From the NCBI GenBank assembly GCA_964473825.1, contig CAYYQL010000010.1, positions 14,692-78,691 of the forward strand: a DNA stretch of 64,000 bases, read 5' to 3'. The translations under genes and the position numbers were made by a program. Numbering within the stretch: position 1 is the first letter of the stretch; each line of letters begins with the position of its first letter. Below, piece after piece: positions 20,500 to 60,132 of this stretch. Under the pieces are notes generated by a model. That model saw only the letters and a program-made list of their open reading frames with translations. It was not told the origin of the DNA and did not search any database. Source of the DNA: an uncultured archaeon. GTDB lineage: Archaea > Asgardarchaeota > Thorarchaeia > Thorarchaeales > Thorarchaeaceae.

Positions 20500-20511
20500 G
20501 TATGATTCATA

Positions 20512-22278: not shown

Positions 22279-22286
22279 GATGATGA

Positions 22287-23600
22287 ATGATGTCTGCTAG
22301 AATCGCACATCTATCGGATACGCATCTTGGGGCAAGACCCCGGGAGGGTATCAAGCAGAACGTGTGGGCTGTGGAGCTGAGGGTTCGCCTCTTGGAAGAC
22401 GACTTCTACCAGCGGTTTCAGGAGGTCTTCGATAGGATTGCAGCTCTTGACCCACCTGTCGACCTGGTGGTTCACTCTGGAGACCTCTATGACTCTCCTT
22501 GGGAGGGCAATCCCTCTCAGCCCCCTGTGGTTGCCCAAGAGACCGCCCTCACAGTACTGAAGGGTTTCATAGAGACGACGGGCATTCCTGTGCTGATTAT
22601 TGAGGGAAATCACGGGCTCTATCGTACTCTGGATGTTTCTCTCTTGGACTCTCTGAACATATCGATTGAGAAGATGAATGTAGCCACCCAAGTAGACCTC
22701 AAGCGGGCTCTTTCTGCAGGGAAGCCGCTCAAGTTCTCGTATGATAAACTCGATGTATTCTGTTTCCCATTCATAGAACAGTCTGTTCTCGAATCAGCAA
22801 ATCTGGTCGCCGATTTCAATGATTGGATCACAACGTATCAGAAGCCTGACAGCAAACGGCCGTCTGTGGCGGTGGCTCACGGAATGGATCTAGATCAGAG
22901 CCTGTTTGGTGGGATATTCAGTATGAACTATGACTATATCGCTCTGGGCCACGATCATCACCTACACAAGCATTCAGATAAGGCGTGGTATGCTGGTTCA
23001 CCAGAGCGATGGCGATTCGATGAGGTCCGTCATGAGAAGGGCTTCCTAGAGGTCGATATTGAGCACGGAAAGACGCCCGAGGTCACCAAGCACATTCTCG
23101 AGTATACCCGACCTGTGTTGAACAAGGTGATAGAGATCGAGGTTGACGATACGGTCCAGAGCGTCTTGGCAAAGATACAGGACCTCTTCGCAGAGGAGAG
23201 TCTGCGAGCGGATTGGAACCCGAGTACTGCTGCACGAGTGAGGCTTGTCTTCAGTGGGGACTCGCCACGATTCAGCGGACTTGACCTAACAGTGGCCATG
23301 GAGGGAATGAGGGTTGATGTCTTATCTCCTGACTCCGATTACAACATCTCTCAGCTCGTATGGTCGATTAAGCAGAGGGACCTCATTCATGATCCTGCGG
23401 CCTATCCCGAGATTGAGTCCGAATATCTCATCGAGGACCCCCAGAAAGACTTTCAGTCCTATCTGGACACCCTGAAGATTGGCGAGGAGTATGACTCTGA
23501 CCTTCTGACAAAGGTGGCTGTGAGGGCACTTGAGTTTGCAGTGGGACGGGATGAGGGTAATTTCACGATTGATACACTCTCGAAGGAGGGCTCTGACTGA
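22287..23600 (+). CDS. mre11: Mre11/SbcD nuclease
   Basis: HLSDTHLG, HSGDLYD, GNH, AHG, YIALGHDH, YAGSPE. Confidence 0.9.
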   Translation: MMSARIAHLSDTHLGARPREGIKQNVWAVELRVRLLEDDFYQRFQEVFDRIAALDPPVDLVVHSGDLYDSPWEGNPSQPPVVAQETALTVLKGFIETTGIPVLIIEGNHGLYRTLDVSLLDSLNISIEKMNVATQVDLKRALSAGKPLKFSYDKLDVFCFPFIEQSVLESANLVADFNDWITTYQKPDSKRPSVAVAHGMDLDQSLFGGIFSMNYDYIALGHDHHLHKHSDKAWYAGSPERWRFDEVRHEKGFLEVDIEHGKTPEVTKHILEYTRPVLNKVIEIEVDDTVQSVLAKIQDLFAEESLRADWNPSTAARVRLVFSGDSPRFSGLDLTVAMEGMRVDVLSPDSDYNISQLVWSIKQRDLIHDPAAYPEIESEYLIEDPQKDFQSYLDTLKIGEEYDSDLLTKVAVRALEFAVGRDEGNFTIDTLSKEGSD

Positions 23601-25684
23601 AGATTCTGCGAGTATCCCTGAAGAACTTCAAACCTTTCCGTGACTTGGAGCTCCCTCCGCAGGGCGACTTACCAGACGGTCTGATTCTCGTTCGGGGACC
23701 GAATTCTACAGGCAAATCGTCTCTCTTTGAGGGGATACTCTGGGGTCTCTGGGGACCAAATGCAGTTGACCCCACAAATGAAGAACTCATCAGTTTCGCA
23801 TCTTCATTCTGCAATGCTGTCGTTGTCTTCGAAGTCGATGGGATACGATACAAGATTGACCGTTCATATGACCCCGCACAGGGCACATCTGCAGTACTCT
23901 ATGTGGGGAAGAAGGATCTATGGAAGAAGATTGCGGACAAGGCCACATCGGTTGAAAGAAGCCTAGAAGACATTCTCAACTTGCAGCTGAATCAGGCACT
24001 GAATACACTCCTTGTCAGACAAGGGGAGGTCGCAAAGATTGCCACTGCGTCCGCATCAGACTTGAGAGAGCTTCTTGTCAAGGTGTACAATATCGAGCTT
24101 CTCGATCAGATGTCCAAGCATCTTGACTACTTCGAGAATGACCTCTCAGCACGGATTCGCAGTCTGCAAGATGACTATCAGAAACCCGACCGGATTCTTG
24201 AGAAGATAGAGGGACTCAAGGAGAGGCTTGAAGAGCACAAGGAAAGGATGAAGGAAACTGAGGAATCTATGGAAGAGCTCGGGAAGCTGGTGGAGAGGGC
24301 TCCAGACGAAGAGATTCTCTCTGATATAGAGAACCTGTCGAAGACTGTAGAGCAGCACCGACGTGACTATGATCGTGCTCTCAGAGAGATGGAACGGGAG
24401 TTCGATGGGACTGGCCTGTCGAGTACCGATGAAGATGAGATCGAGGGGAGAATCGAGTACTTGGAGTTGGAGCGAGACCGTCTGAAGGAGTTGAGGGACA
24501 CCCTTGAGTCTGATATGTCTGCTATCAACCAGAAGATTGGTAGTATCCAAGGAATGATTGCAGATCTTAAGGAGAAGATTGCTCTCTTGAAGCGCCCCTC
24601 AGCTTCTGGTGATGACTCCGTATGTCCCACATGCTCAAAACCTCTCACTTCGGAAGAGCGCGACTCCCTGCTGGATGAATACAACACCCGAATCGCGAGC
24701 GGAACAGCTGATATTGAGCGTCTGAAGATCCAAAGGGACGAGAAACAGAAACGCATGAAAAAGTCTGATGATCGATTGGCAAAGGTCATTCGAACACTGG
24801 ATACTATCGAACGGATTACTGACAGAAAGGCGCAGGTTGACTCCACCAAGTTCAAGCTCGAAGAACAAGAGATGAAGCTGAAAGAAACGATAAGCGGGTT
24901 AGAGGTCGAAGATTTGGACTTACTGATAGAATCCTTTGATGCGGATGACCTCTCTGACTTGAAGCGGAAGGTAGCAGTTCTGAGAACAAAAATCGATTCT
25001 CTTGTGCGGGAACAGAATCTGATTCAAGGTAACCTGCAGAAAGACACAGAAGAGATTGCTAATCTGGAACAAGAAGTCACCCGAATGAGGGAACTTGGCG
25101 CCCAGATCGAGTCATATCAGATGCTCGAAGAACATGCCAAGTATGTTCGACGAAAACTGGTCAGAGGGTTTGTTTCGGACTGGGTCTTCCAGAAGCGCCT
25201 CATTGGTATCATCCGCACGGCCACCAATCAATATGTCCGCGCCTTCACGAACAACCAATATTCCTCAGTGGACCTTGAGCCTACACCTGCAAGGGGCCGT
25301 TCCGGTGCCGGCCTGCAACTCCTGATTCGGGATGAACGTGACAATGCCACCAAGAAGACCTCTCAGCTCAGTTTCGGCGACAGGACCGCCATAAGTCTAG
25401 GGCTTCGTCTGGGTATCAGTCGTACCATGAGTGGTATCCGCCCGCTGAAGGACACACCAATGACAGCTCCACGAGTACGGTCTGTGCTTCTGGATGAACC
25501 TCTCGGCGGCCTGGATCGGAATCGAAGGCTATCTGTTGTCAGGACCCTTGTGAATGACCAGAGTTTCGAACAGATATTCCTGATCACACACACTGACGTA
25601 CAGGGATGGGAGGGAGTCCCAGTGATTGATATTGCCAAGAGCGGCGCTTCCAGTACTGCTACTCTGCAGATGAGCCCTGAGTGA
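23597..25684 (+). CDS. rad50: Rad50/SbcC ATPase (probable CTG start at 23597)
   Basis: KILRVSLKNFKPF upstream of the listed ORF, GPNSTGKSS, VRQGE, coiled coil with CPTC hook, LSFGD, LLDEP, LITH. Confidence 0.9.
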   Translation: MKILRVSLKNFKPFRDLELPPQGDLPDGLILVRGPNSTGKSSLFEGILWGLWGPNAVDPTNEELISFASSFCNAVVVFEVDGIRYKIDRSYDPAQGTSAVLYVGKKDLWKKIADKATSVERSLEDILNLQLNQALNTLLVRQGEVAKIATASASDLRELLVKVYNIELLDQMSKHLDYFENDLSARIRSLQDDYQKPDRILEKIEGLKERLEEHKERMKETEESMEELGKLVERAPDEEILSDIENLSKTVEQHRRDYDRALREMEREFDGTGLSSTDEDEIEGRIEYLELERDRLKELRDTLESDMSAINQKIGSIQGMIADLKEKIALLKRPSASGDDSVCPTCSKPLTSEERDSLLDEYNTRIASGTADIERLKIQRDEKQKRMKKSDDRLAKVIRTLDTIERITDRKAQVDSTKFKLEEQEMKLKETISGLEVEDLDLLIESFDADDLSDLKRKVAVLRTKIDSLVREQNLIQGNLQKDTEEIANLEQEVTRMRELGAQIESYQMLEEHAKYVRRKLVRGFVSDWVFQKRLIGIIRTATNQYVRAFTNNQYSSVDLEPTPARGRSGAGLQLLIRDERDNATKKTSQLSFGDRTAISLGLRLGISRTMSGIRPLKDTPMTAPRVRSVLLDEPLGGLDRNRRLSVVRTLVNDQSFEQIFLITHTDVQGWEGVPVIDIAKSGASSTATLQMSPE

Positions 25685-27357: not shown

Positions 27358-28833
27358 ATGGGAAGAATGGAGCTGGTCCAGAAAGCAAGAGAACGACTGC
27401 GGGAGTACTGGTTACTCCTCTTTGTTCTCGTCGTGGGATGTATAGTCTGGTGGATCGTCTTCGACAGTGCATGCTCCACCTTTGGAGGTATCCGCCCCTA
27501 TCAGGCTGTTTGGAATGGTGCCGGAGAGTTTCCGATCTTCGGTTATACAATCAAGTACAATTTTGAGGGATGGGCGGACTATGACTACTACTACATTAGC
27601 TGGGCCGATCAGTTCCTCGATGGTTATCTTCCCTATACGGATGCTTTCAACCACCCGATTATAGATGGCACGGAGTATCACACTCCCTACTTCTTTCCTC
27701 CGCTCTATGTCTACCTCTGCGCGTTCGGAAGGTTGCTTCCCGTTCAACCCTGCGGTATTGGGCTGGTCATCACAGTCTTTGGCTTCCTGACAGCGTTTCC
27801 TATATACGGTATTGCTGAGTATCTATCCTCGAATCGCCGGGTGGCGGCCATATCAGTTGCCACCTACTTGTTGAACCCGCTCACGCTTTACTATGTTGCA
27901 TTCGAGTGGCTGAACCCTGCTCCCTTTGTCTTCTTCTCCCTGCTCGGTTTCTTCCTGTTGATGCGAAAGAAACGGATTCCGGGGGTCTTGGCCATTGTCA
28001 TGGCCGCTCTCTTGAAGCAGACTGCTTTTTTCTTCGGGCTTCCTCTGGTCGCCTATATCTTGAAGCGTGCTCCAGAAGAATCACCCCTACAGGACGAGAC
28101 GTATGACGGGCGACCTCCAGGTGATGAACTGGATCTTGTGGGGTTTGGGAAGATAGCGCTTATGGTGATTGTCTTTGTCGGAGCAGTCTCTCTTCCTTAT
28201 CTCCCGGATATCGGCAACTACTTTGAGTACATCTTCCAGCGTGCCGGAGCTACTCTCCTCCAAGACCTCACAGTCGTGCCGGCAAGTAACAGTCCAATCA
28301 CACTGGCCGTTCCTTTCATAGCCCTAGAATTTCCTCCGTGGTTCATCCAGGGCATCAATCTGGTATCTTACTACTCGGTAGGTCTTGTGGCTGGTGTGAT
28401 TCCTCTTCTCGCCTTGATGATGTTGAAAGAGAAGGATGACAGAACCCTAAGAGAATACTGGAGAACCATCTTCTATCTGACGCTCTTGCTGGTTCTATGG
28501 TTGCATATCTGGTCTCCCAGAGGTATCTACAAGTACTACACTGTGGCAATACTTCCATTCATCACTATACTGTCCTCCTCACGTATGTGCTCAGCGCGAA
28601 CGGAGCCTGTTTCAATATCCCCCAGTATGGTGATCTTACCAATTGGTTGGAGTTTCTTAATTGTCCTCGCTGACCGTAACATCTACATCATCTATTTGGT
28701 CCTTACACTACTGCTCTATCTTCTGTATAGAGTGGGAATTGGAAGGATCGTTTCCCGCTTACGAAGTGTGTTCTCACAACGGGTCATGTTGGTGCGTAGA
28801 GGGCTTGAAAGGCAGTCGGCTCTAGGTGGTTAG
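27358..28833 (+). CDS. GT-C glycosyltransferase (GT87/PIG-M-like), paralog 2
   Basis: EGWADY, YFFPPL, YLLNP, LKQ, RGIYKYY; colinear with paralog 1. Confidence 0.7.
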   Translation: MGRMELVQKARERLREYWLLLFVLVVGCIVWWIVFDSACSTFGGIRPYQAVWNGAGEFPIFGYTIKYNFEGWADYDYYYISWADQFLDGYLPYTDAFNHPIIDGTEYHTPYFFPPLYVYLCAFGRLLPVQPCGIGLVITVFGFLTAFPIYGIAEYLSSNRRVAAISVATYLLNPLTLYYVAFEWLNPAPFVFFSLLGFFLLMRKKRIPGVLAIVMAALLKQTAFFFGLPLVAYILKRAPEESPLQDETYDGRPPGDELDLVGFGKIALMVIVFVGAVSLPYLPDIGNYFEYIFQRAGATLLQDLTVVPASNSPITLAVPFIALEFPPWFIQGINLVSYYSVGLVAGVIPLLALMMLKEKDDRTLREYWRTIFYLTLLLVLWLHIWSPRGIYKYYTVAILPFITILSSSRMCSARTEPVSISPSMVILPIGWSFLIVLADRNIYIIYLVLTLLLYLLYRVGIGRIVSRLRSVFSQRVMLVRRGLERQSALGG

Positions 28834-30027
28834 TGTTCGGAGTTCATCCCTTTTCCCATCGAGCCTTTTTTCGAGCCTCTCCAGACGCGCTTCAAGTTTC
28901 TTGGATTGCTCCTCGTAGGTTTCTCTGGATATGGCTCCCGATTCATGTCTCTGAGCGACGTGATCTCGAAGCTGTGTCACCGACTTGACTTCTTTCTCAA
29001 GGGCCGATATATCCCCCTCTAGATCAGCCACGATGTTCTCCTCTTCTGTCTTGAATTGTTTCGCAGGAATGATGAGACCGAGCTGATCTTGTGTCTTCTC
29101 TGCAAAGCTCTGGAATTGTTCCCGAAGGCGCGCGATGCTGGTGTCAGTGCCATCTATCTTCTCTTCGAGCCCTCTGATGTCTTTCTGGAGGTCGAAGACC
29201 GCATTGACCAGTCTCTTCATGGTCTTGTCTAGCTCTCCCTGAACGACCTCAGCAGTTTCTGAGTCCTCTCCCGCTTCGGTGGAACCAGATCTCTTCTCTT
29301 TCTCCTTCATCAGTCGTTCATCTCCACAGAGCCATCTGAATGCACTAAGCGCGAATTTTCTATTTCCGTCGCCCTTCATCCCTCCTCCTCGTCTGAACAC
29401 CTCATAGCTGCCCACGCAGACTACTCTGCCCTTCCCCTTCTCTGCAACTGCAATCACAGGTTGAGCTGGGGGATCTGCGGTAGCCGATGTAGTTCCCACA
29501 ACTTTGGCCTTCCCTGATGTTTTCAATGTGCAGGCTGATGGAAGCAATAGACTGTCAACTCCCTCGGTAATGGGGTGGCCCTCAAAATCGGCAATGATTG
29601 GCATTGTGGGTAAGCCTGCATTCATTCGTTCATCTTTGACTGCTGTATTCTCGAACGTGATTCCAAAATTCTCCGAAAGCCTACTCAAGTTGTTCATGAG
29701 TCCCTTATCTCCGCCAGAGAGAGCCAGTAACATGAGACCCCCGCCGCCTTCGACATACGCCTTGAGCGCACCAATCTCATTGGCCCGTAGTTTCGAGCTG
29801 TTGGGGCAGCCAAAGACTATAGCGTCAGCATTCTCTATCTTGTTCTTGAGAATCATGAACTCAGTGTAGGCTTCCACATCATAGTCGTTGTCCTCCAGGA
29901 GGTGTGCCAACTCAGAGTAAGTTGAATCGATTTTCCCTCTTTCATTCTGCGTTTGGTCGAAAAATACTTGCTTTCTTCGGCTCACTGAAGGCCCACCTGA
30001 TGCAATCGTCGATTCATGGTGTGTCAA
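28822..30027 (-). CDS. GIFT (GldG/IFT52-like, GATase-like fold) domain plus coiled coil and C-terminal helical hairpin
   Basis: VFFDQ..E, AIVFGCP, EIGALKAYVEGGGGLML, NFGITF, HPITEGV, GKGRVV, N...AFRWL. Start may be the GTG at 29985. Confidence 0.75.
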   Translation of the reverse strand: MTHHESTIASGGPSVSRRKQVFFDQTQNERGKIDSTYSELAHLLEDNDYDVEAYTEFMILKNKIENADAIVFGCPNSSKLRANEIGALKAYVEGGGGLMLLALSGGDKGLMNNLSRLSENFGITFENTAVKDERMNAGLPTMPIIADFEGHPITEGVDSLLLPSACTLKTSGKAKVVGTTSATADPPAQPVIAVAEKGKGRVVCVGSYEVFRRGGGMKGDGNRKFALSAFRWLCGDERLMKEKEKRSGSTEAGEDSETAEVVQGELDKTMKRLVNAVFDLQKDIRGLEEKIDGTDTSIARLREQFQSFAEKTQDQLGLIIPAKQFKTEEENIVADLEGDISALEKEVKSVTQLRDHVAQRHESGAISRETYEEQSKKLEARLERLEKRLDGKRDELRTLTT

Positions 30028-34004: not shown

Positions 34005-35057
34005 GTGCCCGGGGATTCAAAGATGAAGATGAACTACAGAGAATTCTTGATGAGTGATTTGCTCGTCGTGTTTCGACCTGAAGATGTAGAGATGGAAGCC
34101 AAGGAGTTCATGTCCACGTTCGCCTCTTATATGCAGGGAGCGGGGCTTGTGGGCAAGCGCCCAGATGGACATACGATATATCCAAGTAGGACTGCACCCG
34201 TCGATGAGGAGCATTCCAAGTTCTTCGACGACTGGGTCACTCTTGCGGATGCTCTCGAACTGAATTCCGCTTTGAGCATGGACTTCTACACAGATGCTTG
34301 GTTCGGTCGTGACCCGAAATATCAGACTGTCAATGCACGGGGGAACGCAATGAGCCACCAGATTTGCCCTAACCGGGAGGAGTTCTGGCAGTATGGCGCA
34401 GAGATTGTGAAGGAGATGGGATCATATCCAATCAATGAGGTTCTCTTATTCGGCACCGGTTTCATTAGAGACCAGTTCTGCTTCTGTGACCGCTGCAGGA
34501 AAGAATTTGCGCCCATGGTAAATCAGGAACCTGAGCGTCTGAGCTATCAGTATATCATTGAGAATCCTGACTATCACAAGAAGTGGCACAGCTGGAGAAC
34601 AGACAAAGTAATGCAGGGCGTCATATACTTGCAGGACGCTGCAAGAGATGCCGATGAGATGGTTGGAAGAGAGAACCCCCTGAGGATTACCGTTGAGATT
34701 CTGATGGATCCTGAAACCGGACTTGCAGAAGGAGGGAAGAACGAGTATGGCTATGACTATTCGCGAATCAACGAGATTACGGGTAACCTGCTAATCAACC
34801 TCTATCCTTGGTCACCACTTCTTCCCGGCAAAGGGAGTAAGGAGTACTCGGAGCTCGTTGAGTCTTTGTATTTCGTTAAAGAGTTCGAGCGCCGCGGAGG
34901 ACATGTCTCACTATTCCGATGGGGAGTCACTGAGATGGGCCAGGTGCGGGAGATGAAGGCAATTGCGCAAGATGCAGGTATTAGCCGACTCATTACAAGC
35001 TTCCACTATCCGGCGGATTACTCAGCACGTCGTGAAGCTGCAATAGGCAACTATTGA
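34005..35057 (+). CDS. Glycoside-hydrolase-like TIM barrel protein with Cys cluster
   Basis: ICPN, FCFCDRCRKEF, WHSWR pattern seen in GH42/GHL-like proteins. Confidence 0.55.
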   Translation: MPGDSKMKMNYREFLMSDLLVVFRPEDVEMEAKEFMSTFASYMQGAGLVGKRPDGHTIYPSRTAPVDEEHSKFFDDWVTLADALELNSALSMDFYTDAWFGRDPKYQTVNARGNAMSHQICPNREEFWQYGAEIVKEMGSYPINEVLLFGTGFIRDQFCFCDRCRKEFAPMVNQEPERLSYQYIIENPDYHKKWHSWRTDKVMQGVIYLQDAARDADEMVGRENPLRITVEILMDPETGLAEGGKNEYGYDYSRINEITGNLLINLYPWSPLLPGKGSKEYSELVESLYFVKEFERRGGHVSLFRWGVTEMGQVREMKAIAQDAGISRLITSFHYPADYSARREAAIGNY

Positions 35058-35929
35058 GAAGCTCCGCAGTATGGGCATCTCCCTGTCCCCCTCTCTATGG
35101 TTCGCCCGCAAGAGAAACAGAAAGAGGGTCGTGATTGTTCACCCTCCATTTCCTCGTTGAATGGGCTCAACTCACCTTGGGTAAATAGTGCTCCTAACCC
35201 CTCAACTGATTCATCGGTGTTCAGGTTGCAGCCACCGAATGAGCCACTCCCACTTCTTCCATGATCCTTGAATCGGCGTCTATCCAAAGGAACCTCTTTG
35301 AATGGTTCTCTTTCTCGACTAGGGTGCCTGGATGCTGCTCGTGCTGATTCTTGCCTATCCCGCCCATCGCGATAATGACTCTCACTTGATGACTCTCTCC
35401 GGTCGCGGTCTTGAAGTGCGCGGTCCAGAGTATCGAAATCGCGCCTGTAATCATCGGAGCCAAATCCTGTGTCGATGGCTGGTCTATTCACCGAACGCCC
35501 GTTAACGTCATAATTCCACTGACTGCCTGTCGGACTGAATCCTTTTGATGCGTCCATGAACATGGAGTGGGAACCACTCTTCAGCTGCTCGTAATCCTCC
35601 TTGGTCAGGCTTAGCACCTCAAGAGCGCGATCCCGCTCTGCACAACGTTTTGAGAGGGGACAACAATATGCTAGGCTTCCATGACATAGCGATGCCATGG
35701 CCCTCTCTTGGCTTGACTTAAAAATAGGCGTTATTCTCTTTCTTCCAAGGACAAGCGAGTCGCCGTTTGCCCTGAGTTCGGCGTATCCACTTTGGGCTAG
35801 AGCCTCCACAAGCTCTCTTGCAGGATAGGCTTTTCCCTCGATTACTACGAATCCTTCTGTCCTATCGAGTCTAACTGGTCGTTCACTGTCTCGCTCTTCG
35901 CGGTAGGAATCGTATTTCGTAATGGCCAC
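35051..35929 (-). CDS. Hypothetical protein: methanogenesis-marker-9-like Cys motif, charged linker, C-terminal zinc ribbon
   Basis: CHGSLAYCCPLSKRCAERD...YEQLK; CFSC...CPYCG. Confidence 0.65.
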   Translation of the reverse strand: MAITKYDSYREERDSERPVRLDRTEGFVVIEGKAYPARELVEALAQSGYAELRANGDSLVLGRKRITPIFKSSQERAMASLCHGSLAYCCPLSKRCAERDRALEVLSLTKEDYEQLKSGSHSMFMDASKGFSPTGSQWNYDVNGRSVNRPAIDTGFGSDDYRRDFDTLDRALQDRDRRESSSESHYRDGRDRQESARAASRHPSREREPFKEVPLDRRRFKDHGRSGSGSFGGCNLNTDESVEGLGALFTQGELSPFNEEMEGEQSRPSFCFSCGRTIERGTGRCPYCGASQ

Positions 35930-42221: not shown

Positions 42222-42917
42222 CTAGGTGATGGAATGGAGATGGGCTCTTCCGCGTCTACCTACTAGCTTCACGATTCCTATCTTTCTGAGAGTGTACGTC
42301 ATTTTCCTTGCCAGCGCAGGTGGCCGCTTGATTTGCTCTGCGAGTTCAGCATTGGTGAACGGACTCGTCAGGTCTTCTGGGATGAGTTTCAGTAAGTCTG
42401 ATGGGCTCTCAAACAACTGACTATCCACTACTTCCACTAGATTAGTATCAACGATACTCCAACCTCTGCGTCTCCAACTTCCATGCCCGTCCTGCCTGCG
42501 AGTCTCCTCTGCCCTGACCTGCAGGACATCAATACTGAAACGAGCATGTTCAATGAGTCTGGGAAGGTAGACCATCTCATAGAAGACGTCGTGGAAACTC
42601 TCCTTCTTGGGTGAGAGACGCTTCTCAATTACTTCTGATCCATCTGGTGTTTCTTTCACTATGTACTTCTCTGATATCACAGGATAGACCAGGCGCACTC
42701 TGTGTCTGGTGAGAAGATCCCGGAGTTTCGCTTTGATCGCTGAGAAACTTGTGGTCTGTATCTCGATTAAGAGATCATCTCGTACGATATCGATTACATA
42801 ACCATCTACCTCGAACTCAACACAATCGCCAGGTTCTGTATACCACTCCTTCAGTCCGGCATGGAGTGAGCGCTCTTGTAGCGTTCCGATATGCGGGCTC
42901 GAGGGATTTTTCGCCAT
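42222..42917 (-). CDS. PD-(D/E)xK-like protein with C-terminal winged helix
   Basis: ERSLHAGLK, GYVIDI, IEIQT; C-terminal FTNAELAE...KMTYTL. Confidence 0.65.
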   Translation of the reverse strand: MAKNPSSPHIGTLQERSLHAGLKEWYTEPGDCVEFEVDGYVIDIVRDDLLIEIQTTSFSAIKAKLRDLLTRHRVRLVYPVISEKYIVKETPDGSEVIEKRLSPKKESFHDVFYEMVYLPRLIEHARFSIDVLQVRAEETRRQDGHGSWRRRGWSIVDTNLVEVVDSQLFESPSDLLKLIPEDLTSPFTNAELAEQIKRPPALARKMTYTLRKIGIVKLVGRRGRAHLHSIT

Positions 42918-43042
42918 ATTACTGCACTCGCTGTACACAATCTCCAGCTTTCCACTTGGGATGAACAGGCCAATAGTCGGGGTGAAAAAAGACACGGCCG
43001 AGGATTCAGCCCACGGCCTATTCTAGATGGCGGATATCGCTT

Positions 43043-43207
43043 CTATTCCTTCAGCGTCAAGTCGTCACCGCAACAAGTGAAACTACAGCCGCACTGGTCC
43101 TCGTCGTTGCAGCACTCCGTACACTCGCTGAGGATTTTGATTTCAAGTCCACAGGTCTCGCATGCATAGACCTGTCCTTTTTTCATATCATGACAATGTA
43201 GTGACAT
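43043..43207 (-). CDS. Small Cys-rich desulforedoxin-like metal-binding protein (54 aa)
   Basis: MKKGQVYACETCG...CCGDDL; GGAGAGG RBS. Confidence 0.75.
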   Translation of the reverse strand: MSLHCHDMKKGQVYACETCGLEIKILSECTECCNDEDQCGCSFTCCGDDLTLKE

Positions 43208-43383
43208 TTCTTCAACCTCTCCACAATTTCGTGTCTTCCCGATATGTTTTGTACATATGTTCTTTGTGCTATCTCGAAGCGTTGTGCTTGGGTTGGTGCT
43301 CAATAATACTCCCTCTTAAAGGAGGCTGCTTCCAACTCACTCTAGTATAGAGTCGACCGTATAAACGCGAGGTAGCAATAGAG

Positions 43384-44142
43384 ATGGATGATCATGTTGA
43401 ATCTGAGCTCTACGCGTCGATAGCCACGCTGGATCAGTTCAAGAAGATGTTCGACATGGGCGCTGTGGATGTTCGTTCCTACGAGCGCGAATCAGAGGCT
43501 CTTGTCATGGATATCCGAGAGAATCTTGATAGATTGCGTCGGATGGGCAGAGATGTAACCGGATTCTTTGAGAGTGAGGGCATTGTTTCCCGTTTTCCCG
43601 AAGCCGCAGGAGTGCTTCGAATTCTACCACAACAGTCTGCTGCTTCCATGCAGGGGATGACGTCGGATGAATACTATGACTACATTGGTCTGGCGGTGCT
43701 TGACGTTGCAACTGAGAACGCAACAAAGGGTCTTATGGGTTTGGCAGAGCTGATTGTGGACGTTGTACGACGAACCCCCGAACTCAAATCCGTCAGCTAT
43801 AATGATGTGATAGAGGCAGTGGATCGAGTTGCAGAGCACGGTCTCATTCCAGGAATTCGAACACTAAGCGGAGGCGTCAAAGTTGTTGAATTGAGGCCTT
43901 TGGAACTTCGGCAAGACCAGGCTGATGTCATCAATCTCGCAGCGTCCAAAGGATTTGTTTCTATTGAGGAAGTAATCATGAAGCTGAAATGGTCTGAAGA
44001 CCACGCTCGAACCGTCCTCTCAAGCCTTGTGGAGGCAGGCATGGCTGTGGCCGACATCCGATTCAGCACGGGGGGAAGATACTACTTTCCCGGCCTAAGA
44101 TCAAGGACAGATGTTGACTCGAATGGCAAGCATAACCGCTAG
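43384..44142 (+). CDS. Fusion of Vps28-N-terminal-like helical hairpin and Vps22/36 (EAP30) tandem winged helix
   Basis: N-terminal SELYASIATLDQ...SYE...FPEA; C-terminal DEYY..IG...VSYNDV...PLEL..DQ...GFVS...LKWS...G.A..D...YYFPGL. Confidence 0.85.
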   Translation: MDDHVESELYASIATLDQFKKMFDMGAVDVRSYERESEALVMDIRENLDRLRRMGRDVTGFFESEGIVSRFPEAAGVLRILPQQSAASMQGMTSDEYYDYIGLAVLDVATENATKGLMGLAELIVDVVRRTPELKSVSYNDVIEAVDRVAEHGLIPGIRTLSGGVKVVELRPLELRQDQADVINLAASKGFVSIEEVIMKLKWSEDHARTVLSSLVEAGMAVADIRFSTGGRYYFPGLRSRTDVDSNGKHNR

Positions 44143-44146
44143 CCTG

Positions 44147-44851
44147 TCATACGACCAGCACAACAGCGCCGCGTTCCTTGTCTACCCATCTCGCATAACC
44201 ACGTTCTACAAGCAGTTCCATGATACGGCGAAGGTCGCCCTCCGGGAGGCGTCCGAAACCTTCTCTACCCTGTTGGATGACAATCGACTTAACATCAAGA
44301 TGCATCAAGCCCGTTTCAAGTGCCCAACGGTAGATATGGTCAGCCCAGTCCTCCAAAGGTCGCCAGTAGACCCGAAGCTGACGCTTCTCATCTCCGATCC
44401 ACTGTGCTATGTTCTTTTCTACAAGGGTATCTCCAAGGATCTCAAACGCATCAGCCTTACCGACAATCCCGCTAAACGGACTCTCGGTTATGAAAGTCGT
44501 AATCGATATGACGTGAAGCTTCTGGCTCTCCATCCATGTGAGTATGAAGTCTGTCCAATCTCGTGCCCAGAGTTGTATGCCCTCTTCGTAATCTGGAACC
44601 TGATACATCCACTCCGCCTCTTCGGCATTCCCCCAGCGCGGCTGGATCTCCTCGGCTTCAATTGCAGTCTCTCGTGATACAGCAGCCTCTTCTTCGGACT
44701 CTGTGACGGTCACAGCTTCTTTTACACTGACTTCGGGTACGTGTTGATCCGTAGAAGTCTTGGTCACGATTTGCTCTTCTGACTCTTCTTCCGACTCGCG
44801 CTTCTTCTCGACGTTCTTCTCCTTCTCTTTTGATCTCTCACGAACATTCAT
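44147..44851 (-). CDS. vps25: ESCRT-II Vps25-like protein with acidic N-terminal extension
   Basis: W..WTDFIL, VYWRPLEDWADHIYRWALETG, LVERGYARW match Vps25 winged-helix motifs. Confidence 0.85.
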   Translation of the reverse strand: MNVRERSKEKEKNVEKKRESEEESEEQIVTKTSTDQHVPEVSVKEAVTVTESEEEAAVSRETAIEAEEIQPRWGNAEEAEWMYQVPDYEEGIQLWARDWTDFILTWMESQKLHVISITTFITESPFSGIVGKADAFEILGDTLVEKNIAQWIGDEKRQLRVYWRPLEDWADHIYRWALETGLMHLDVKSIVIQQGREGFGRLPEGDLRRIMELLVERGYARWVDKERGAVVLVV

Positions 44852-44854
44852 CAG

Positions 44855-46063
44855 CTACGAGCCCTCCGCCCAGTCTATATATCGCTTGACATCTTCGGGC
44901 GACGTTGCAGGTCTGATATTCTCGATAGCTGATAAGAAGTCATAGCGCTCAACAGGTCTCAAGTCGAATATTTCCGACTCTTCATCCAAACGTCCACTTG
45001 TTTGAAGTTCTCGAATCGGCTCCATTGCCGCCTCTCGGCACACAACACTGATGTCCCGTCCACTGTATCCCTCTGTCAGGTCAGCCAACTCCGCGAAGTC
45101 TACGCTGGGGGCTATCTCTATCTCCTCCATATGAATATTGAATATCTTCTTTCGAGCCTCGCCACCTGGCAATGGCACATGGATTCTTTTCTCAAATCTT
45201 GACCGCAGAGCAAAGTCGAGCTCCCAAGGAAGGTTTGTGGCTCCGATCACTGTGATTCTCTCGTCCTCGCGACTACCAAGGCCCTGTAACTCGGTCAGCA
45301 GCTGCGTCTTCAGACGCCTTTCACCTCCAACATCATCACCGGACCTGGAAACTCCTATAGAATCGAGCTCATCGATGAATATTATAGCGGGTGGATGCTT
45401 TCGTGCCAGTTCGAAGAGAGTCATTACCAGTCGTTCTGATTCGCCGAGCCACTTGCTTACTATATTGCCGGCTGACACATTGAAGAATGTCGCGTCAATC
45501 TCTGAGGCCACGGCCTTTGCTATGAGTGTTTTACCACATCCCGCAGGACCATAAAGCAAGATGCCTCTCCAGGGTTGTCTCGCCTTTCCACGGAAAAGCT
45601 CGGGATGCTTCATGGGCGCAAGAATCGCGTCATCAATTGCCTGCTTTGCATCCTCGAGATCTGCGACCTCTGACATTCTAACATCTGGGCGCTCCGAAAC
45701 TATTGTATCTTCTATCATATCTCGCAGTCTGACGGTATCCTCGTCAATCTCTTTCTCTTCGGCAGAGACTTGAGCAGGCACTGGCTCTTCTCTCTCAAGG
45801 GGGTCTGGTGGTGTTTCGAGTCCATGGACAGGTCCTGACTTCTTCTTGATGCCGGAGAGATACCGGACCCTGTCAACGCACTCTTGTGCTCTCTTGAGAT
45901 AGTGTTTCCTGATAGAGGGCAATGCTGCCGAGTTTGACAGTTTAATCAGCACCTTGCTGGCCTTTAGATAATACTGGCAGGCCTCCTTTCCCATCCCTCT
46001 CTTGTCTAGGTCTATAGCCTTGTCAAGTAGCGCTTTGAGACCCTGATCTATTCTATCCACCAT
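44855..46063 (-). CDS. vps4: Vps4 AAA ATPase with MIT domain
   Basis: MIT (AIDLDKRG...Y...RAQE), PWRGILLYGPAGCGKT, SKWLGESE, FIDELD, GATNLPWELD, TEGYSG. Confidence 0.93.
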   Translation of the reverse strand: MVDRIDQGLKALLDKAIDLDKRGMGKEACQYYLKASKVLIKLSNSAALPSIRKHYLKRAQECVDRVRYLSGIKKKSGPVHGLETPPDPLEREEPVPAQVSAEEKEIDEDTVRLRDMIEDTIVSERPDVRMSEVADLEDAKQAIDDAILAPMKHPELFRGKARQPWRGILLYGPAGCGKTLIAKAVASEIDATFFNVSAGNIVSKWLGESERLVMTLFELARKHPPAIIFIDELDSIGVSRSGDDVGGERRLKTQLLTELQGLGSREDERITVIGATNLPWELDFALRSRFEKRIHVPLPGGEARKKIFNIHMEEIEIAPSVDFAELADLTEGYSGRDISVVCREAAMEPIRELQTSGRLDEESEIFDLRPVERYDFLSAIENIRPATSPEDVKRYIDWAEGS

Positions 46064-46223
46064 TGAACCTCACTCGCGATTAGATGTCTTCCGTTAAGAA
46101 CTTCAGTATTTCCCATTCACCATCTGGCTCATATGTCGAAGTGGTTACTCGTTCTACGAAGGTTTAAACGGTCTACATTCATTGCATCTATGTACAGCAA
46201 TAAGATTGACGAGGGAGTGACTC

Positions 46224-46838
46224 TTGGGTCCAATTCGAAAGGCTTTCAGATGGGGCAAAAAACGCCCAGATGTCGGTGAAGTTTCAAGTCAGCTTCGGGT
46301 TCTGTCAAAACAGCTGGCGCGAGAACGCAACAAACTCGAGAAAGAAGCTCGTGATACTAGGGCTCGAGCTGTACGTGCCAGGAAGGAGGGCAGGATTGAC
46401 GCGTACAAGACCTATGCCGCTGAGATGGTCCGGTTCCGACGCTTCGCTCTCTCTGTGGACAAGTCCCGTCTTCAAATCCTGAAGATCTTGGCCTATATCA
46501 CTCGAGCGCAGACCACAGCCAAGGCTAATGTTGCACTGGAGAAAGTCGCTGACATCCTGGGGCTCTTAGGTGACACCACGGACACACTGAAGGTCGTGGA
46601 GAATGTGGATGAGATTGGTCGTCGGTTGGAGCAGTTTGAGATAGAGTCCAGCATGTCGACAGAAGCCCTCGACACGACTGAGATTGGTGAAGTCACTTCA
46701 GAAGAGCTCGCTACGGCCATGGCCGAGATAGATGCAGAAGCGGGTGCATCCACATCTCGCGCGAAAAAGGCTCCTATGACAGAATCTGAAGAACTAGAGG
46801 CTGAGATCAAATCACTGGAACAAGAACTAGGTGTCTAG
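46224..46838 (+). CDS. ESCRT-III Vps2/24/46-like (Snf7 family) subunit
   Basis: Basic N-half (EG..DAYKTYAAEMVRFR), acidic C-half, C-terminal MIM1-like ELEAEIKSL. Confidence 0.88.
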   Translation: MGPIRKAFRWGKKRPDVGEVSSQLRVLSKQLARERNKLEKEARDTRARAVRARKEGRIDAYKTYAAEMVRFRRFALSVDKSRLQILKILAYITRAQTTAKANVALEKVADILGLLGDTTDTLKVVENVDEIGRRLEQFEIESSMSTEALDTTEIGEVTSEELATAMAEIDAEAGASTSRAKKAPMTESEELEAEIKSLEQELGV

Positions 46839-46839
46839 C

Positions 46840-48390
46840 TCACCAGGAAGAATCAGATCTCTGCTTCATGGCCTCATACATTTCTTTCCGAGTTCTGTAG
46901 GAGTCGAGCATTAGACTCCTGTATCTTCTCACGAAATCTTCAGGGACAAGCCGTCGATTCCTAAATAGGTCCACGGTTCGCGAAACTGCCTGCTGCAAGT
47001 CTCTGGCATCTCTTTTGAGGTGCTGTATCTGGGGGTCGGCACCTCCGAGTCGGTCTTCACGTCCGAGAGATGCTCGAGAGAGGACGTCCTCAAGGTGGTC
47101 GGTGAAATGCTGAGCTCCATACTTGTCCATGGTGCCATAGCCTGCTGCAGGGCGTTTCTGATAGTGATATCTCTCATTCATAGTGAGGTTTTCTGCGCGT
47201 TTCCGATTGCCTGAAGACAAGAGTGAATACACAAGTTCTTCTATCTTGAGACGTACGTCACTGATATTGAAACTCGACTGTTCAATGCGCCTCACCCGCT
47301 GCATATCCGTCTGCATGTATCTATCGAACTTCTTTGCTATCTCTAGATAGTCTGGAAGAACCTCCTCGGTCTGCTCGTCACAGGATATCTTTAGGTCTCC
47401 CTGTTTCATCTTGAGAACGAGGCGCTTTCTGATCCTCCCGTCCTCCTCCATGGAGTTGAGATAGACGAGGGGGAAATCGAAGAGGACTTCCATCTTCTTT
47501 CGAAAAGTTCCCACTTCGGCTATGAACACAATTCTCTTGTTCGTTATATAGAGTGTCCCCGTTGCCTTGTCGTGCTTAAGGAAATCGCTACCTGTAACTC
47601 GAATCTCGGGCAATGCGCAGACAGGGAGTTCATTGACAGACAGTTCAGCGTGTTCGTAGAATCCCGCAAATTCCTTACGATAGTAGTCAAGGCCCTCAAG
47701 CTGGGTTGTCGATTCGTCTAGTCGAACAACGCAGTCATCCAACGCATCATCAACACCAGACTTGAAATGCTCTCCCAGTTCTCCAATTCGGTTTGCAACA
47801 CCCTCAATAAACGGAAACTGATCGGGGGTCCAGCCATTGGGGTCGATTATTCCCTTGGTCTCGGCAGCCATCTGACGTCCGACCATATCTGCTTGGTTGA
47901 CAACTCTCTTTTTCACGGCCAATGCTTCATCTTGGATTCTCTCGATATTGTCTTCAATCCAGTGATAATGGAGAAAATTGGCCATTCTCAATGAAACCAG
48001 TAGCCTCTTCGAGGCAGTAAGCTTGCTGTTGAACTCCCTCAACTTGAGATGACCATACTGGAGTGACATAATGGACTCTCGCAGCTTCTTTCCAAGGTTC
48101 CTTCTCTTGTCAGCTATAGCGACTATCTTGGAGGAGTGACATCGGGGGCAGATCTCTTCTATTCTTTTCCCAATGCTCAGTTCTTCACACTCGCATTCGG
48201 GGCACTTTTCGAAGGGCCCCCCGGCCTCTGGAGTTCCTAGAGTATGATGGCACTCTGAACAGACATAGTACTCCGTGGTCTTACTCTCAAGACAATCCAG
48301 ACAGAAGTTCTCGCCGCAGTCTTCGCACATGTGAGTTGCCGTGATTCTCTCGCAAACTCTGCATTTTCTGTGGGAGCTGCCTACCTTCAA
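46840..48390 (-). CDS. Multi-domain protein: FYVE/B-box-like Zn fingers, helical region, GRAM/GLUE-like PH domain, Vps23-like steadiness box
   Basis: Six CxxC pairs; GTLYITNKRIVF; C-terminal AVSRTVDLFRNRRLVPEDFVRRYRSL. Confidence 0.7.
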   Translation of the reverse strand: MKVGSSHRKCRVCERITATHMCEDCGENFCLDCLESKTTEYYVCSECHHTLGTPEAGGPFEKCPECECEELSIGKRIEEICPRCHSSKIVAIADKRRNLGKKLRESIMSLQYGHLKLREFNSKLTASKRLLVSLRMANFLHYHWIEDNIERIQDEALAVKKRVVNQADMVGRQMAAETKGIIDPNGWTPDQFPFIEGVANRIGELGEHFKSGVDDALDDCVVRLDESTTQLEGLDYYRKEFAGFYEHAELSVNELPVCALPEIRVTGSDFLKHDKATGTLYITNKRIVFIAEVGTFRKKMEVLFDFPLVYLNSMEEDGRIRKRLVLKMKQGDLKISCDEQTEEVLPDYLEIAKKFDRYMQTDMQRVRRIEQSSFNISDVRLKIEELVYSLLSSGNRKRAENLTMNERYHYQKRPAAGYGTMDKYGAQHFTDHLEDVLSRASLGREDRLGGADPQIQHLKRDARDLQQAVSRTVDLFRNRRLVPEDFVRRYRSLMLDSYRTRKEMYEAMKQRSDSSW

Positions 48391-54743: not shown

Positions 54744-55595
54744 GTGCGATTCAAGATGGTCGAACGTCGCTCAATTCTAGGAATGTGGCTGATTGAGAGA
54801 GGAACCGGCCGAAATCTCGTAGCACGAGCGTACGATGGCATTGACATTGACATGGATCTTATTGCTCCCTTCTTGTCTGCAACACACACCTTCATCGACA
54901 AGGCGTCTAATGAGACTCTCAAGACAATAGACACCGAGAATAGTAGATACGTCTGGGAAGCGAGTGAGCATATTCTCTTTGTCATGGTGATCTCAAAGGC
55001 AGCACGAATCGGTCATATGAGGTTCATGCTTGACTACGCGTTGAATGAGTTTGTGAACAACTTCATCCCTCAAGAGCGAGGAATCAGCAACGTACTAAAG
55101 GAGTGGCATGGTGATCCAACTGCATTCAAGGAATTCGGCCTCTTTTTGGACGAACTTGTCGGTCAGTATGAAGAGACTGACGAATGTCTGCTGGCAGGCA
55201 AATCAATGGACTGCCTTGAGGTCTATAACCATCTCTTTCGTGAGATTATGAAGATAGACATGAAGAAGAAAACAAAGCGAGAAATCGCTACCATCATCCG
55301 CAACAGAATCGAACCTCTCACTGAGAGATACATGTTTCTTGAATCCGTACCTATCGATGACTGTGGAATCGAGGTACTAGAGATAGATGTTTCGAGAGGT
55401 GATATCCCTTACCGAAGCTTGCGGACTGCTCTGGAAGATCTCCTCCGGATCACTGCCGAAGAGGTACAAGAAAAGGCCGGTGTGAACAACTATCGCCAAA
55501 TGGTATTTGACCATCTGATGCCGTACGTCAAGCGCGATATCCAGAGGCTCCAGACATACGCAATCCTCGATGATGTGGTTCGATATCTCTTCTAG
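54744..55595 (+). CDS. Longin-like N-terminal domain plus helical C-terminal domain
   Basis: ILGMWLIERGTGRNL, DLIAPFLSA..TF, LKTI, ILFVMV, F..F...LD longin pattern. Confidence 0.7.
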   Translation: MRFKMVERRSILGMWLIERGTGRNLVARAYDGIDIDMDLIAPFLSATHTFIDKASNETLKTIDTENSRYVWEASEHILFVMVISKAARIGHMRFMLDYALNEFVNNFIPQERGISNVLKEWHGDPTAFKEFGLFLDELVGQYEETDECLLAGKSMDCLEVYNHLFREIMKIDMKKKTKREIATIIRNRIEPLTERYMFLESVPIDDCGIEVLEIDVSRGDIPYRSLRTALEDLLRITAEEVQEKAGVNNYRQMVFDHLMPYVKRDIQRLQTYAILDDVVRYLF

Positions 55596-59328: not shown

Positions 59329-60132
59329 CTAATGTGCTTGCCAGAATGTCCAGATGAGAACGGCGATACAAGCAGATGAAACAACGAATGCCCATCCGGT
59401 CGATGTATCGTGAGCTTCTCTTATCCCAAACACGAGAAGCAGCCCAACCCAGAAGAAAGATGCAGTCGTCATGTAATCTATAGTTAACCAAACCCCCGAC
59501 TCGTAGATTGACATCACAATGCCATCCCAAGAACTCGCGGCAGTGATATTGTACGCGGGCAAGTAAAAGATGACCACCAGAAGTGCAACCAGACGGAACA
59601 GTATCACGGGAACCATACTGTATCCGACGATCGACATTGTCTTGCCCTTGTTCCCTGTGCCCCCGGTTACCTTGAAGGCCAAGTGGGCGAACATTGTTCC
59701 GACAAGTAGATACACCATGCCTAACAGTATGTTGGGCAAGATGCTGACGAGTGTCGTACTGTAGAATGCTCCTGAATAATCGCTTCCCAACACACCAACA
59801 TCCGTCAGAGTCCCGTTGATGTTAACTCTAACATAGAACTTGGATGAGATTGCCAAGAACAGACCCGCCATAATCAGGGCGTTCATGACGATGATCAACA
59901 ACGGTCCCCCACCGTCGGGTCTTCGTCCTATATCCCGATAGGTCGCCGCAGGATTTCGCACTACACCCCAGAATCTGTCCAGAACCCCCAACGCTCGGAC
60001 CTCTGGTCTTTCGGGCCTTTTCAGAATCGGTAAGACGCGCTCGAGAGTTTCTTCTGCAATGGTTTCATTGCATACCGGGCAGACTATCGCATCTGCTGGT
60101 ACGGGACTGTCGCAGAACTCACAGCGGCGCAA
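59329..60132 (-). CDS. Yip1-family membrane protein with N-terminal zinc ribbon
   Basis: CEFC...CPVC; VVRNPAATY, GGPL, GYSMVP, five TM segments. Confidence 0.8.
   Translation of the reverse strand: MRRCEFCDSPVPADAIVCPVCNETIAEETLERVLPILKRPERPEVRALGVLDRFWGVVRNPAATYRDIGRRPDGGGPLLIIVMNALIMAGLFLAISSKFYVRVNINGTLTDVGVLGSDYSGAFYSTTLVSILPNILLGMVYLLVGTMFAHLAFKVTGGTGNKGKTMSIVGYSMVPVILFRLVALLVVIFYLPAYNITAASSWDGIVMSIYESGVWLTIDYMTTASFFWVGLLLVFGIREAHDTSTGWAFVVSSACIAVLIWTFWQAH

Follow-up and report, generated by a model that had tools for sequence, protein, structure and literature searches.

A Vps28N-Vps22 fusion and a zinc/PH steadiness-box protein in the ESCRT gene cluster of a thorarchaeon

The ESCRT cluster and its conservation

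The genome that carries the ESCRT cluster described here is that of a thorarchaeon. Five contiguous genes make up the cluster within the window, the whole 64-kb stretch of DNA that was analysed:

43384..44142, + strand: Vps28N-Vps22 fusion, the Thorarchaeia (Thor) form of Vps22 (252 aa; ortholog of ThorAB25_09030)
44147..44851, - strand: Vps25 (ESCRT-II) with an acidic N-terminal extension (234 aa; PF05871, E 2e-11)
44855..46063, - strand: Vps4 AAA ATPase (402 aa; Pfam MIT, AAA, lid and Vps4_C)
46224..46838, + strand: ESCRT-IIIA of the Vps2/24/46 class (204 aa; Pfam Snf7, 5e-8)
46840..48390, - strand: Znr_CC_PH_SB protein, referred to as the Zn/PH protein (516 aa; asCOG cog.011556, ortholog of ThorAB25_08990 'SB')

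All five open reading frames are genuine, and the positions, strands and domains given in the original prediction agree with the ORF check and with the Pfam, profile and fold matches. The genes are separated, in order, by 4, 3, 160 and 1 bp. The Snf7 protein resembles CHMP2A/CHMP1B, which places it in the Vps2/24/46 class. Named matches of the cluster proteins in homology searches were nearly all from Thorarchaeota, and the adjoining Vps22, Vps25, Vps4, ESCRT-IIIA and SB genes are orthologous to ThorAB25_08990-09030. The gene order was identical in six of the seven Thor loci compared, and the expected linkage of the Zn/PH gene to ESCRT genes in relatives was borne out, the Zn/PH and fusion genes lying less than 6 kb apart in 62/62 Thor genomes that have both on one contig. 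In G099, a deep-branching Thor genome, the two are found on separate large contigs. The cluster is flanked by AspRS, TldD/PmbA and ArgRS genes of equal synteny.

This five-gene cluster is standard for Thorarchaeia and already published, and as a locus it brings nothing new. The novelty that had been suggested for it did not survive, as earlier papers describe the two protein architectures and the locus and state that Thorarchaeota have no ubiquitin (PMC9192718; PMC10936438). A literature search found no explicit description of the wiring discussed below, in which the hairpin of the Zn/PH protein pairs with the Vps28N-Vps22 fusion.

The two hairpin proteins and their modelled contact

The fusion protein is composed of two parts:

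43384..43623, + strand: Vps28 N-terminal helical hairpin, steadiness-box type (residues 1-80)
43672..44103, + strand: Vps22/SNF8 tandem winged-helix core (residues ~97-240; human SNF8, E 1.5e-19)

Residues 1-80 were matched by the profile of the free Asgard Vps28 N-terminus with an E of 4e-17, and the family of fusion hairpins matches yeast Vps28 (E 1.4e-4) with Y10 of the fusion aligned to Y44 of yeast Vps28, so the Vps28-like assignment made earlier holds; PF03997 by itself misses the hairpin in this genome. Pfam places EAP30 at residues 89-224 (E 6e-14). The product has no PH domain and its best match is SNF8/Vps22, and the winged-helix chain has no GLUE domain of the Vps36 kind, a split PH with NZF fingers. 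The fusion junction is discernible in the alignment, the native Vps22 N-terminal helices are absent, and no C-terminal four-helix bundle of Vps28 was found in the fusion protein or the genome. A profile search found the fusion in 0/38 non-Thor genomes (17 of which also seeded the Vps22-N profile); there Vps28 is a separate gene, and in some 20 loci it lies upstream of Vps22. A Vps28 hairpin on every Asgard Vps22 was thus rejected, and the restriction of the fusion to Thorarchaeia is what this analysis adds. By comparison with other Asgards, the Thor fusion unites two genes that are neighbours elsewhere and has lost Vps28-C and the Vps22 N-region.

It could be argued that the Vps28N segment is the vestige of an accidental deletion-fusion and that the gene order is inherited housekeeping synteny, as fusions of adjacent genes occur easily and the flanking genes are as syntenic as the ESCRT genes. 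We consider this highly improbable, as the fusion is retained by both Thor families and residues 8-20 and many positions of the hairpin show conservation of 90% or more (n = 121 sequences).

The Zn/PH protein has the Znr_CC_PH_SB architecture of N-terminal zinc sites, then a coiled coil, a PH domain and a C-terminal steadiness box:

48139..48366, - strand: zinc cluster of six CxxC pairs, B-box/FYVE/RING-like
47650..48117, - strand: long helical bundle or coiled coil (residues 92-247)
47317..47643, - strand: GRAM/PH-fold domain (residues 250-358), its two loop tips (residues 294-299 and 318-323) basic-hydrophobic and conserved
46846..47034, - strand: Vps23-type steadiness-box hairpin (residues 453-515), the second helix forming the modelled interface

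A single-sequence fold of the 516-aa protein was unusable (pLDDT 39); the AlphaFold model has a pLDDT of 83. Fold searches with the whole model were filled by PH matches and barely covered the zinc and helical parts. The 12 cysteines (six CxxC, three zinc sites) are invariant in 19 diverse family members. The basic phosphoinositide motif of FYVE domains, R(R/K)HHCR, is absent, and the equivalent segment is neutral or acidic in all members compared. A RING, B-box, PHD or FYVE identity was not adopted for the cluster, as the matches were all weak and mutually inconsistent. Profile searches of the helical region against the PDB returned generic coiled coils only, so a BAR or other fold is not assignable, and an ESM Atlas feature search with residues 1-250 gave no match. 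The PH domain, which is uninterrupted and on its own gene in the AlphaFold model, has a weak bPH/GRAM match in Pfam (residues 274-318) and resembles the MTMR2 GRAM-PH domain (Z 12.7, rmsd 2.7 A, 107 residues) and the GLUE domain (Z 10.5). It is net neutral (18 K/R, 18 D/E), and its basic/hydrophobic loop-tip motifs are conserved in all Asgard members compared.

The genome has no clear Vps23-type hairpin other than the C-terminal one of the Zn/PH protein. This hairpin superimposes on yeast Vps23 with Z 9.5-9.7 (rmsd 2.4-2.9 A, 64-66 residues) and on CdvA, its best structural match, with Z 10.2, values that are weak on their own for short helical pieces. The Asgard Vps23-SB profile matches Znr_CC_PH_SB members, G099 included, at E 1e-5 to 1e-9; a Thor-only hairpin profile matches yeast Vps23 weakly (E 0.12), and one Vps23 match of the hairpin is partly due to UEV-Vps23 rows within the alignment. 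The family profile and the fold matches uphold the Vps23-like assignment.

The original prediction had proposed that the two hairpins pair. The complex model scored 0.79 as compared to 0.01 for the best of three controls, none of them a cognate-like hairpin; in the benchmark for this score, the mark was attained by 58 of 80 solved pairs and by 2 of the 110 mismatched ones. Between runs, at least 95% of contacts are shared, with a partner pLDDT of at least 80. Y10, A11, A14 and T15 of the fusion and Y490, M494 and Y498 of the Zn/PH hairpin form the modelled core, and in each hairpin conservation is higher at the interface than elsewhere (0.86 vs 0.70 and 0.77 vs 0.59). The predicted interface appears in the model, although the score may reflect memory because the like Vps23-Vps28 headpiece is already solved (2F66, 2P22); the model demonstrates likeness to the ESCRT-I headpiece and not binding by this copy. 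The predicted contact is supported by modelling and by the gene-loss patterns. Two-hybrid data of Hatano et al. (2022, PMC9192718) include an SB-protein/Vps28 pattern for Thor and Loki and an SB-Vps22 pattern in Loki.

Alternatively, the hairpins may not pair, in which case Vps28N would serve Vps22 homo-dimerisation or another partner, such as a 770-aa Vps22 paralog, and the Zn/PH protein would oligomerise like CdvA and recruit ESCRT-III directly. The match to CdvA fits such roles, as does the position of the Zn/PH gene in non-Thor Asgards, where it adjoins ESCRT-IIIA/B and not Vps28. Hatano et al. also reported that Thor Vps22 interacts with itself, and suggested contacts of ESCRT-I/II with ESCRT-III that bypass Vps25. 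Additionally, the cross-linked dimer surface of Heimdall Vps22 lies in the N-region that the fusion has lost, which makes a replacement surface for dimerisation plausible. We regard this alternative as unlikely, as the heterologous pair models at high confidence with a conserved interface and the fusion keeps the Vps28 signature at the yeast Y44 position; the roles it assigns are also compatible with hairpin pairing.

Ubiquitin loss and a possible route to ESCRT recruitment

No ubiquitin, E2, UEV, RING or Vps28-C was found genome-wide in this 95.7% complete genome. The lack of ubiquitin, E1/E2/E3, UEV and Vps20/32/60 genes claimed for the 64-kb window stands; for Vps20/32/60 it does not extend to the genome, as an ESCRT-IIIB of this type is encoded on another contig (C4:90412-90891). 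The locus is thus not a complete pathway, as this ESCRT-IIIB is the partner of Vps25 in published two-hybrid data; a IIIA-IIIB contact is published as well. The second Vps22-type protein of 770 aa could alter the architecture as well.

The lack of ubiquitin and UEV is lineage-wide. Ubiquitin was found in 0/72 Thor genomes as compared to 217/229 other Asgards, E2 in none of the 72 over the cut-off (positive controls 4/4) and Vps28-C in none of the 72 over the threshold (controls 4/5), and the UEV part of UEV-Vps23 was unmatched in the 72 in a profile search with controls. Nineteen weak Thor matches to the UEV-Vps23 alignment were rejected, as they covered the Pro-rich/coiled-coil part or the Zn/PH hairpin alone and never UEV. 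The Zn/PH protein was matched in 148/229 non-Thor genomes (a few matches being partial), nearly all from ubiquitin-positive families, and was rejected as a Thor-specific substitute for ubiquitin recognition; being ancestral and present beside ubiquitin in most Asgards, the adaptor did not arise as its replacement.

Recruitment could still be driven by a tag other than ubiquitin, with the zinc cluster reading a SAMP/MoaD-type modifier or cargo tail and the PH domain binding protein, not lipid. The genome encodes a ThiF/UbaA-type enzyme beside a ThiS/SAMP-fold gene, a JAB protease and three further SAMP-like genes whose products end in GG, the zinc-cluster profile matches are RING/B-box proteins, and mammalian GLUE-type PH domains, which bind ubiquitin, are among the PH fold matches (2hth, 2dx5). 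However, the SAMP/ThiF genes are unlinked to the ESCRT cluster and are ordinary archaeal sulfur-carrier genes, the zinc-cluster matches are generic cysteine patterns, and the PH loop tips are conserved Asgard-wide, as a membrane face would be. There is thus little probability that a tag of this kind is used.

Judged from gene content, Thorarchaeia are shown to have lost ubiquitin, E2, UEV-Vps23 and Vps28-C, with the Vps28 N-hairpin joined directly to the Vps22 winged helices. The Thor cluster is probably a reduced ancestral Asgard ESCRT with a membrane- or protein-cued working order and no ubiquitin. The Zn/PH protein would dock on the membrane through its basic, hydrophobic-tipped PH loops, lipid binding being predicted. 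Its Vps23-type hairpin would then pair with the Vps28N hairpin in the manner of the ESCRT-I headpiece, possibly with a 2:1 stoichiometry like that of Odin Vps23/Vps28. The covalent Vps28N-Vps22 link may replace the bridge from Vps28C to ESCRT-II, so Vps22 would be recruited directly. By analogy with eukaryotes Vps25 would join, after which ESCRT-IIIB and ESCRT-IIIA would polymerise and be remodelled by Vps4. Membrane or protein cues would choose the site instead of ubiquitin.

It is conceivable, and we put it forward tentatively, that in ancestral Asgards Vps28 could take either of two interchangeable Vps23-type heads, UEV-Vps23 where cargo was ubiquitinated and Znr_CC_PH_SB where the cue came from the membrane, and that Thorarchaeia kept only the second, tied to ESCRT-II through a fusion of neighbouring genes in which Vps28-C and the Vps22 N-region were lost together. 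No statement of this combination was found in the literature. If true, this would leave Thorarchaeia with a minimal ubiquitin-free pathway of six proteins spanning ESCRT-I/II/III, and would point to a contact between Vps28C and the Vps22 N-region as the pre-Vps36 bridge in other Asgards; such a contact in Odin or Heimdall proteins is predicted from the Thor fusion. The fusion also hints at a way into ESCRT that needs no ubiquitin and that most Asgards may retain beside the ubiquitin route.

Comparison with known ESCRT systems

The study by Hatano et al. (2022, PMC9192718) used the Thor orthologs ThorAB25_08990 'SB', _09020 (Vps25) and _09030 (Vps22) in two-hybrid assays (Supplementary Data 1), stated that Thorarchaeota are without ubiquitin, and proposed that, towards Vps28, the steadiness-box protein of Thor/Loki acts in the place of Vps23. 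No Asgard Vps22-Vps25 contact is given in its text. Two questions were left open, namely how Asgard ESCRT-I is linked to ESCRT-II without Vps36 and what triggers ESCRT in the ubiquitin-less Thorarchaeia; the Thor-restricted fusion bears on both, a refinement of use to specialists. The AB_25 cluster, whose orthologous genes carry consecutive locus tags, shares with ours the N-terminal zinc motifs, the Vps28-like start of Vps22 and the absence of ubiquitin. It is from another Thor genome, and the text of Hatano et al. is silent on the Vps28 hairpin of Thor Vps22 and on this hairpin as the SB partner.

Makarova et al. (2024; main text and Table S3 of PMC10936438) named the Znr_CC_PH_SB family (cog.011556), showed that Thor Vps22 carries the Vps28 hairpin, and proposed that Znr_CC_PH_SB is an ESCRT-I component associated with the membrane via its PH domain by analogy with the Vps36 GLUE domain. 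The SB-fused Vps22 is their cog.002769 (KXH75178.1, residues 1-70, HHpred 99% to PF03997), and the proteins of both groups are identical in architecture to those of this locus. Their SB fusion is stated for Asgard Vps22 generally, whereas our profiles for Vps28N-type hairpins found the hairpin on Thor Vps22 only; any SB likeness of other Vps22 N-regions would be far more remote.

The eukaryotic ESCRT-I headpiece (Vps23/Vps28/Vps37; 2F66, 2P22, 6VME) has homologous Vps23- and Vps28-type hairpins, and eukaryotic ESCRT with its Vps28C-Vps36 GLUE bridge likewise has PH plus zinc modules and Vps22/Vps25 winged helices. The Thor set differs in being without UEV, Vps37, Vps28-C and Vps36, in having the PH and zinc domains on the Vps23-type chain, and in having a covalent link from I to II. 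Other Asgards have an operon of UEV-Vps23, Vps28, (a small Vps28C-like gene) and Vps22, often converging on Vps25-Vps4, with the Znr_CC_PH_SB gene separate. The Odin/Heimdall operon is the source of the parts fused in Thor; unlike Thor, it keeps ubiquitin binding, Vps28-C and the native Vps22 N-region. In the Heimdall UEV-Vps23-Vps28 fusion (for operon and fusion, PMC9192718; 10.1101/2023.07.25.550441), Vps28 is joined upstream to Vps23 and not downstream to Vps22, which shows that ESCRT-I modules have been repeatedly re-fused in Asgards.

The ESCRT gene cluster and the Vps28N-Vps22 fusion

The five ORFs of the cluster were confirmed, with intergenic gaps of 4, 3, 160, and 1 bp, in a genome of 3.27 Mb and 95.7% completeness. 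The original prediction described their anatomy correctly:

43384-44142 (+), Vps28N-Vps22 fusion of 252 aa (Pfam EAP30, residues 89-224)
44147-44851 (-), Vps25 (Pfam ESCRT-II/Vps25)
44855-46063 (-), Vps4 (Pfam MIT-AAA-Vps4_C)
46224-46838 (+), ESCRT-IIIA, resembling CHMP2A/CHMP1B (Pfam Snf7)
46840-48390 (-), Zn/PH protein of 516 aa, Znr_CC_PH_SB (weak Pfam PH/GRAM signals)

Homolog searches with the fusion and the Zn/PH protein returned Thorarchaeota proteins (48-93% identity). The two genes lie on one contig in 62 of the 69 Thorarchaeia (Thor) genomes with coordinates for both, always within 6 kb, and gene order is identical in six of the seven loci read. They are separated in the deep-branching Thor genome G099, each on its own large contig, and there the Zn/PH gene adjoins ESCRT-IIIA and IIIB, an arrangement shared with several non-Thor lineages. 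A small Cys-rich ORF (43043-43303, -) and a 257-aa ORF (42222-42995, -) between AspRS and the cluster were not found in the Thor loci compared and are therefore not part of it.

In the fusion, a Vps28 N-terminal hairpin occupies residues 1-80 (E 4e-17 against a profile of free-standing Asgard Vps28) and is followed by the Vps22 winged-helix pair at residues ~97-240 (E 1.5e-19 to SNF8); the alignment shows the junction clearly. The family also matches yeast Vps28 (E 1.4e-4), with Y10 aligned to yeast Y44. The fusion is found in both Thor families; a Vps22 bearing the hairpin occurs in 0 of 38 non-Thor genomes, and 34 of these retain the native Vps22 N-region. In ~20 non-Thor loci a separate Vps28 gene, itself preceded by UEV-Vps23, lies immediately upstream of Vps22. 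By this comparison, the fusion would have arisen by the joining of neighboring genes with loss of Vps28-C and the Vps22 N-region. Several Asgards carry a small free-standing Vps28C-like gene (95-102 aa) between Vps28 and Vps22 (L059:8840-9127, L082:919-1215, and loci L062, L065, L066, and L071), noted by Makarova et al. 2024 (PMC10936438); it is absent from the Thor locus.

Other features were observed in the window:

19207-25684 (+), HerA, Mre11-like, and Rad50 genes, preceded by a probable NurA; L059 has a similar block after Vps22
28822-30027 (-), IFT52 GIFT-domain protein (E 1e-15)
35051-35929 (-), uncharacterized Cys-rich protein whose C-terminus forms a zinc ribbon; a homolog (46% identity over 110 aa) adjoins the UEV-Vps23 operon of L072, L059 and L069 hold look-alikes, and the gene may be a remnant of the ancestral neighborhood
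54744-55595 (+), weak longin-domain match
59329-60132 (-), zinc-ribbon and Yip1 membrane protein; in L062, another Asgard, a homolog (28% identity) lies beside E1 within the ubiquitin cluster, and a look-alike does likewise in L059

The Zn/PH protein

A structure model of the 516-aa protein, built on 120 sequences (pLDDT 83), contains a zinc cluster and the following:

residues 92-247, three long helices
residues 250-358, PH fold, followed by a helix and a disordered linker
residues 453-515, terminal hairpin

The zinc cluster has six invariant CxxC pairs; its matches are weak and mixed (B-box/RING/FYVE), and the basic pocket of FYVE domains was looked for in it and not found. In fold searches the PH fold matched the MTMR2 GRAM-PH (Z 12.7) and EAP45 GLUE (Z 10.5) domains. 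Across Asgard lineages, two of its loop tips keep a hydrophobic residue amid basic ones, which fits a putative membrane face. The hairpin matched CdvA (Z 10.2) and yeast Vps23 (Z 9.5-9.7), and an Asgard UEV-Vps23 steadiness-box profile matches the C-termini of family members (E 1e-5 to 1e-9). Proteins of Chloroflexota and Bathyarchaeota match the helical bundle and PH module (residues 76-363) in structure (best TM 0.73 by target), and one cluster of them bears GRAM/Vps36 Pfam hits.

Ubiquitin and unlinked ESCRT genes

The lack of ubiquitin genes noted for the window extends to the class: searches for ubiquitin found it in none of 72 Thorarchaeia and in 217 of 229 other Asgards. With positive controls run, the 72 Thor genomes gave no E2 match over the cut-off, no UEV, and no Vps28-C; RING fingers were found in two controls and not in three Thor genomes. 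Profiles from other Asgards give the same absences for this genome. The Thor genomes are kin and the counts are not independent, and the pattern is one evolutionary event. The Zn/PH protein is not linked to the loss of ubiquitin: 219 of the 301 Asgard genomes match it, some of them in families where nearly every genome has ubiquitin. In one Thor genome a 148-aa frame (G123:C42:5464-5637) gives a weak E2/UBC-fold match that falls under the cut-off.

ThiF, SAMP/MoaD-type, and JAB genes are retained in the genome. A ThiF/UbaA gene is divergent from a SAMP/ThiS-fold gene, and three more SAMP-like genes that end in GG are also present, along with a prokaryotic JAB protease:

C66:3573-4741; C19:28839; C23:24494; C39:18177; C17:12846, ThiF/UbaA, SAMP-like, and JAB set

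The window does lack a Vps20/32/60-type gene, but this absence means nothing since an ESCRT-IIIB is encoded on contig C4 (90412-90891; L001:1387-2112; E 1.5e-11 to Heimdall ESCRT-IIIB), adjoining an inositol-monophosphatase-like gene. In most Thor genomes the Vps22 alignment matches twice. A 770-aa protein (C4:133462-135774, L117:5463-7772; also L068:6462-8879) has a coiled coil and an Ig-like domain upstream of a near-complete C-terminal EAP30/Vps22 region; its gene adjoins that of an Arf-like GTPase, and it is a possible Vps36-like partner of Vps22.

Proposed hairpin pairing and published Asgard ESCRT systems

The original prediction held that the Zn/PH hairpin pairs with the Vps28-like hairpin of the fusion. 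A complex model of fusion residues 1-85 with Zn/PH residues 445-516 scored 0.79, a mark reached by 58 of 80 solved pairs and 2 of 110 mismatched pairs, and of the three controls the best scored 0.01; runs share at least 95% of contacts and partner pLDDT is at least 80. In the model, Vps28N helix 1 (Y10, A11, A14, T15) lies against the second helix of the Vps23-type hairpin (V487, Y490, R491, M494, Y498), and these positions are more conserved than the remainder of either hairpin. A passing score denotes likeness, not proof of binding by this copy, and may reflect memory because the eukaryotic Vps23-Vps28 headpiece is already solved. An independent argument comes by elimination, as Vps28N is conserved in a lineage without UEV-Vps23 and the genome has no clear Vps23-type hairpin besides that of the Zn/PH protein. 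The proposed wiring is likely.

The presumed novelty of the locus did not hold; it has already been published, together with both architectures and the setting without ubiquitin. Makarova et al. 2024 (PMC10936438) matched Thor Vps22 residues 1-70 to the Vps28 N-terminal box (99%, HHpred) and considered Znr_CC_PH_SB a likely component of ESCRT-I, ancestral and associated with membranes. Hatano et al. 2022 (PMC9192718) describe Thorarchaeota as lacking ubiquitin, and the proteins they tested include ThorAB25_08990 (SB), _09030 (Vps22), and _09020 (Vps25). They report that Vps22 of Thor interacts with itself, that Vps25 contacts ESCRT-IIIB, and that SB contacts Vps22 in Loki, and they state that a free-standing steadiness-box protein of Loki and Thor may interact with Vps28. 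Because excerpts of their sequence list contain no Thor Vps28 and none was found in the class, the Thor Vps28-like partner meant is probably the fusion. The literature searched yielded no statement of hairpin pairing or of Thor-restriction of the fusion, and what is left beyond the published work is a modest, testable refinement.
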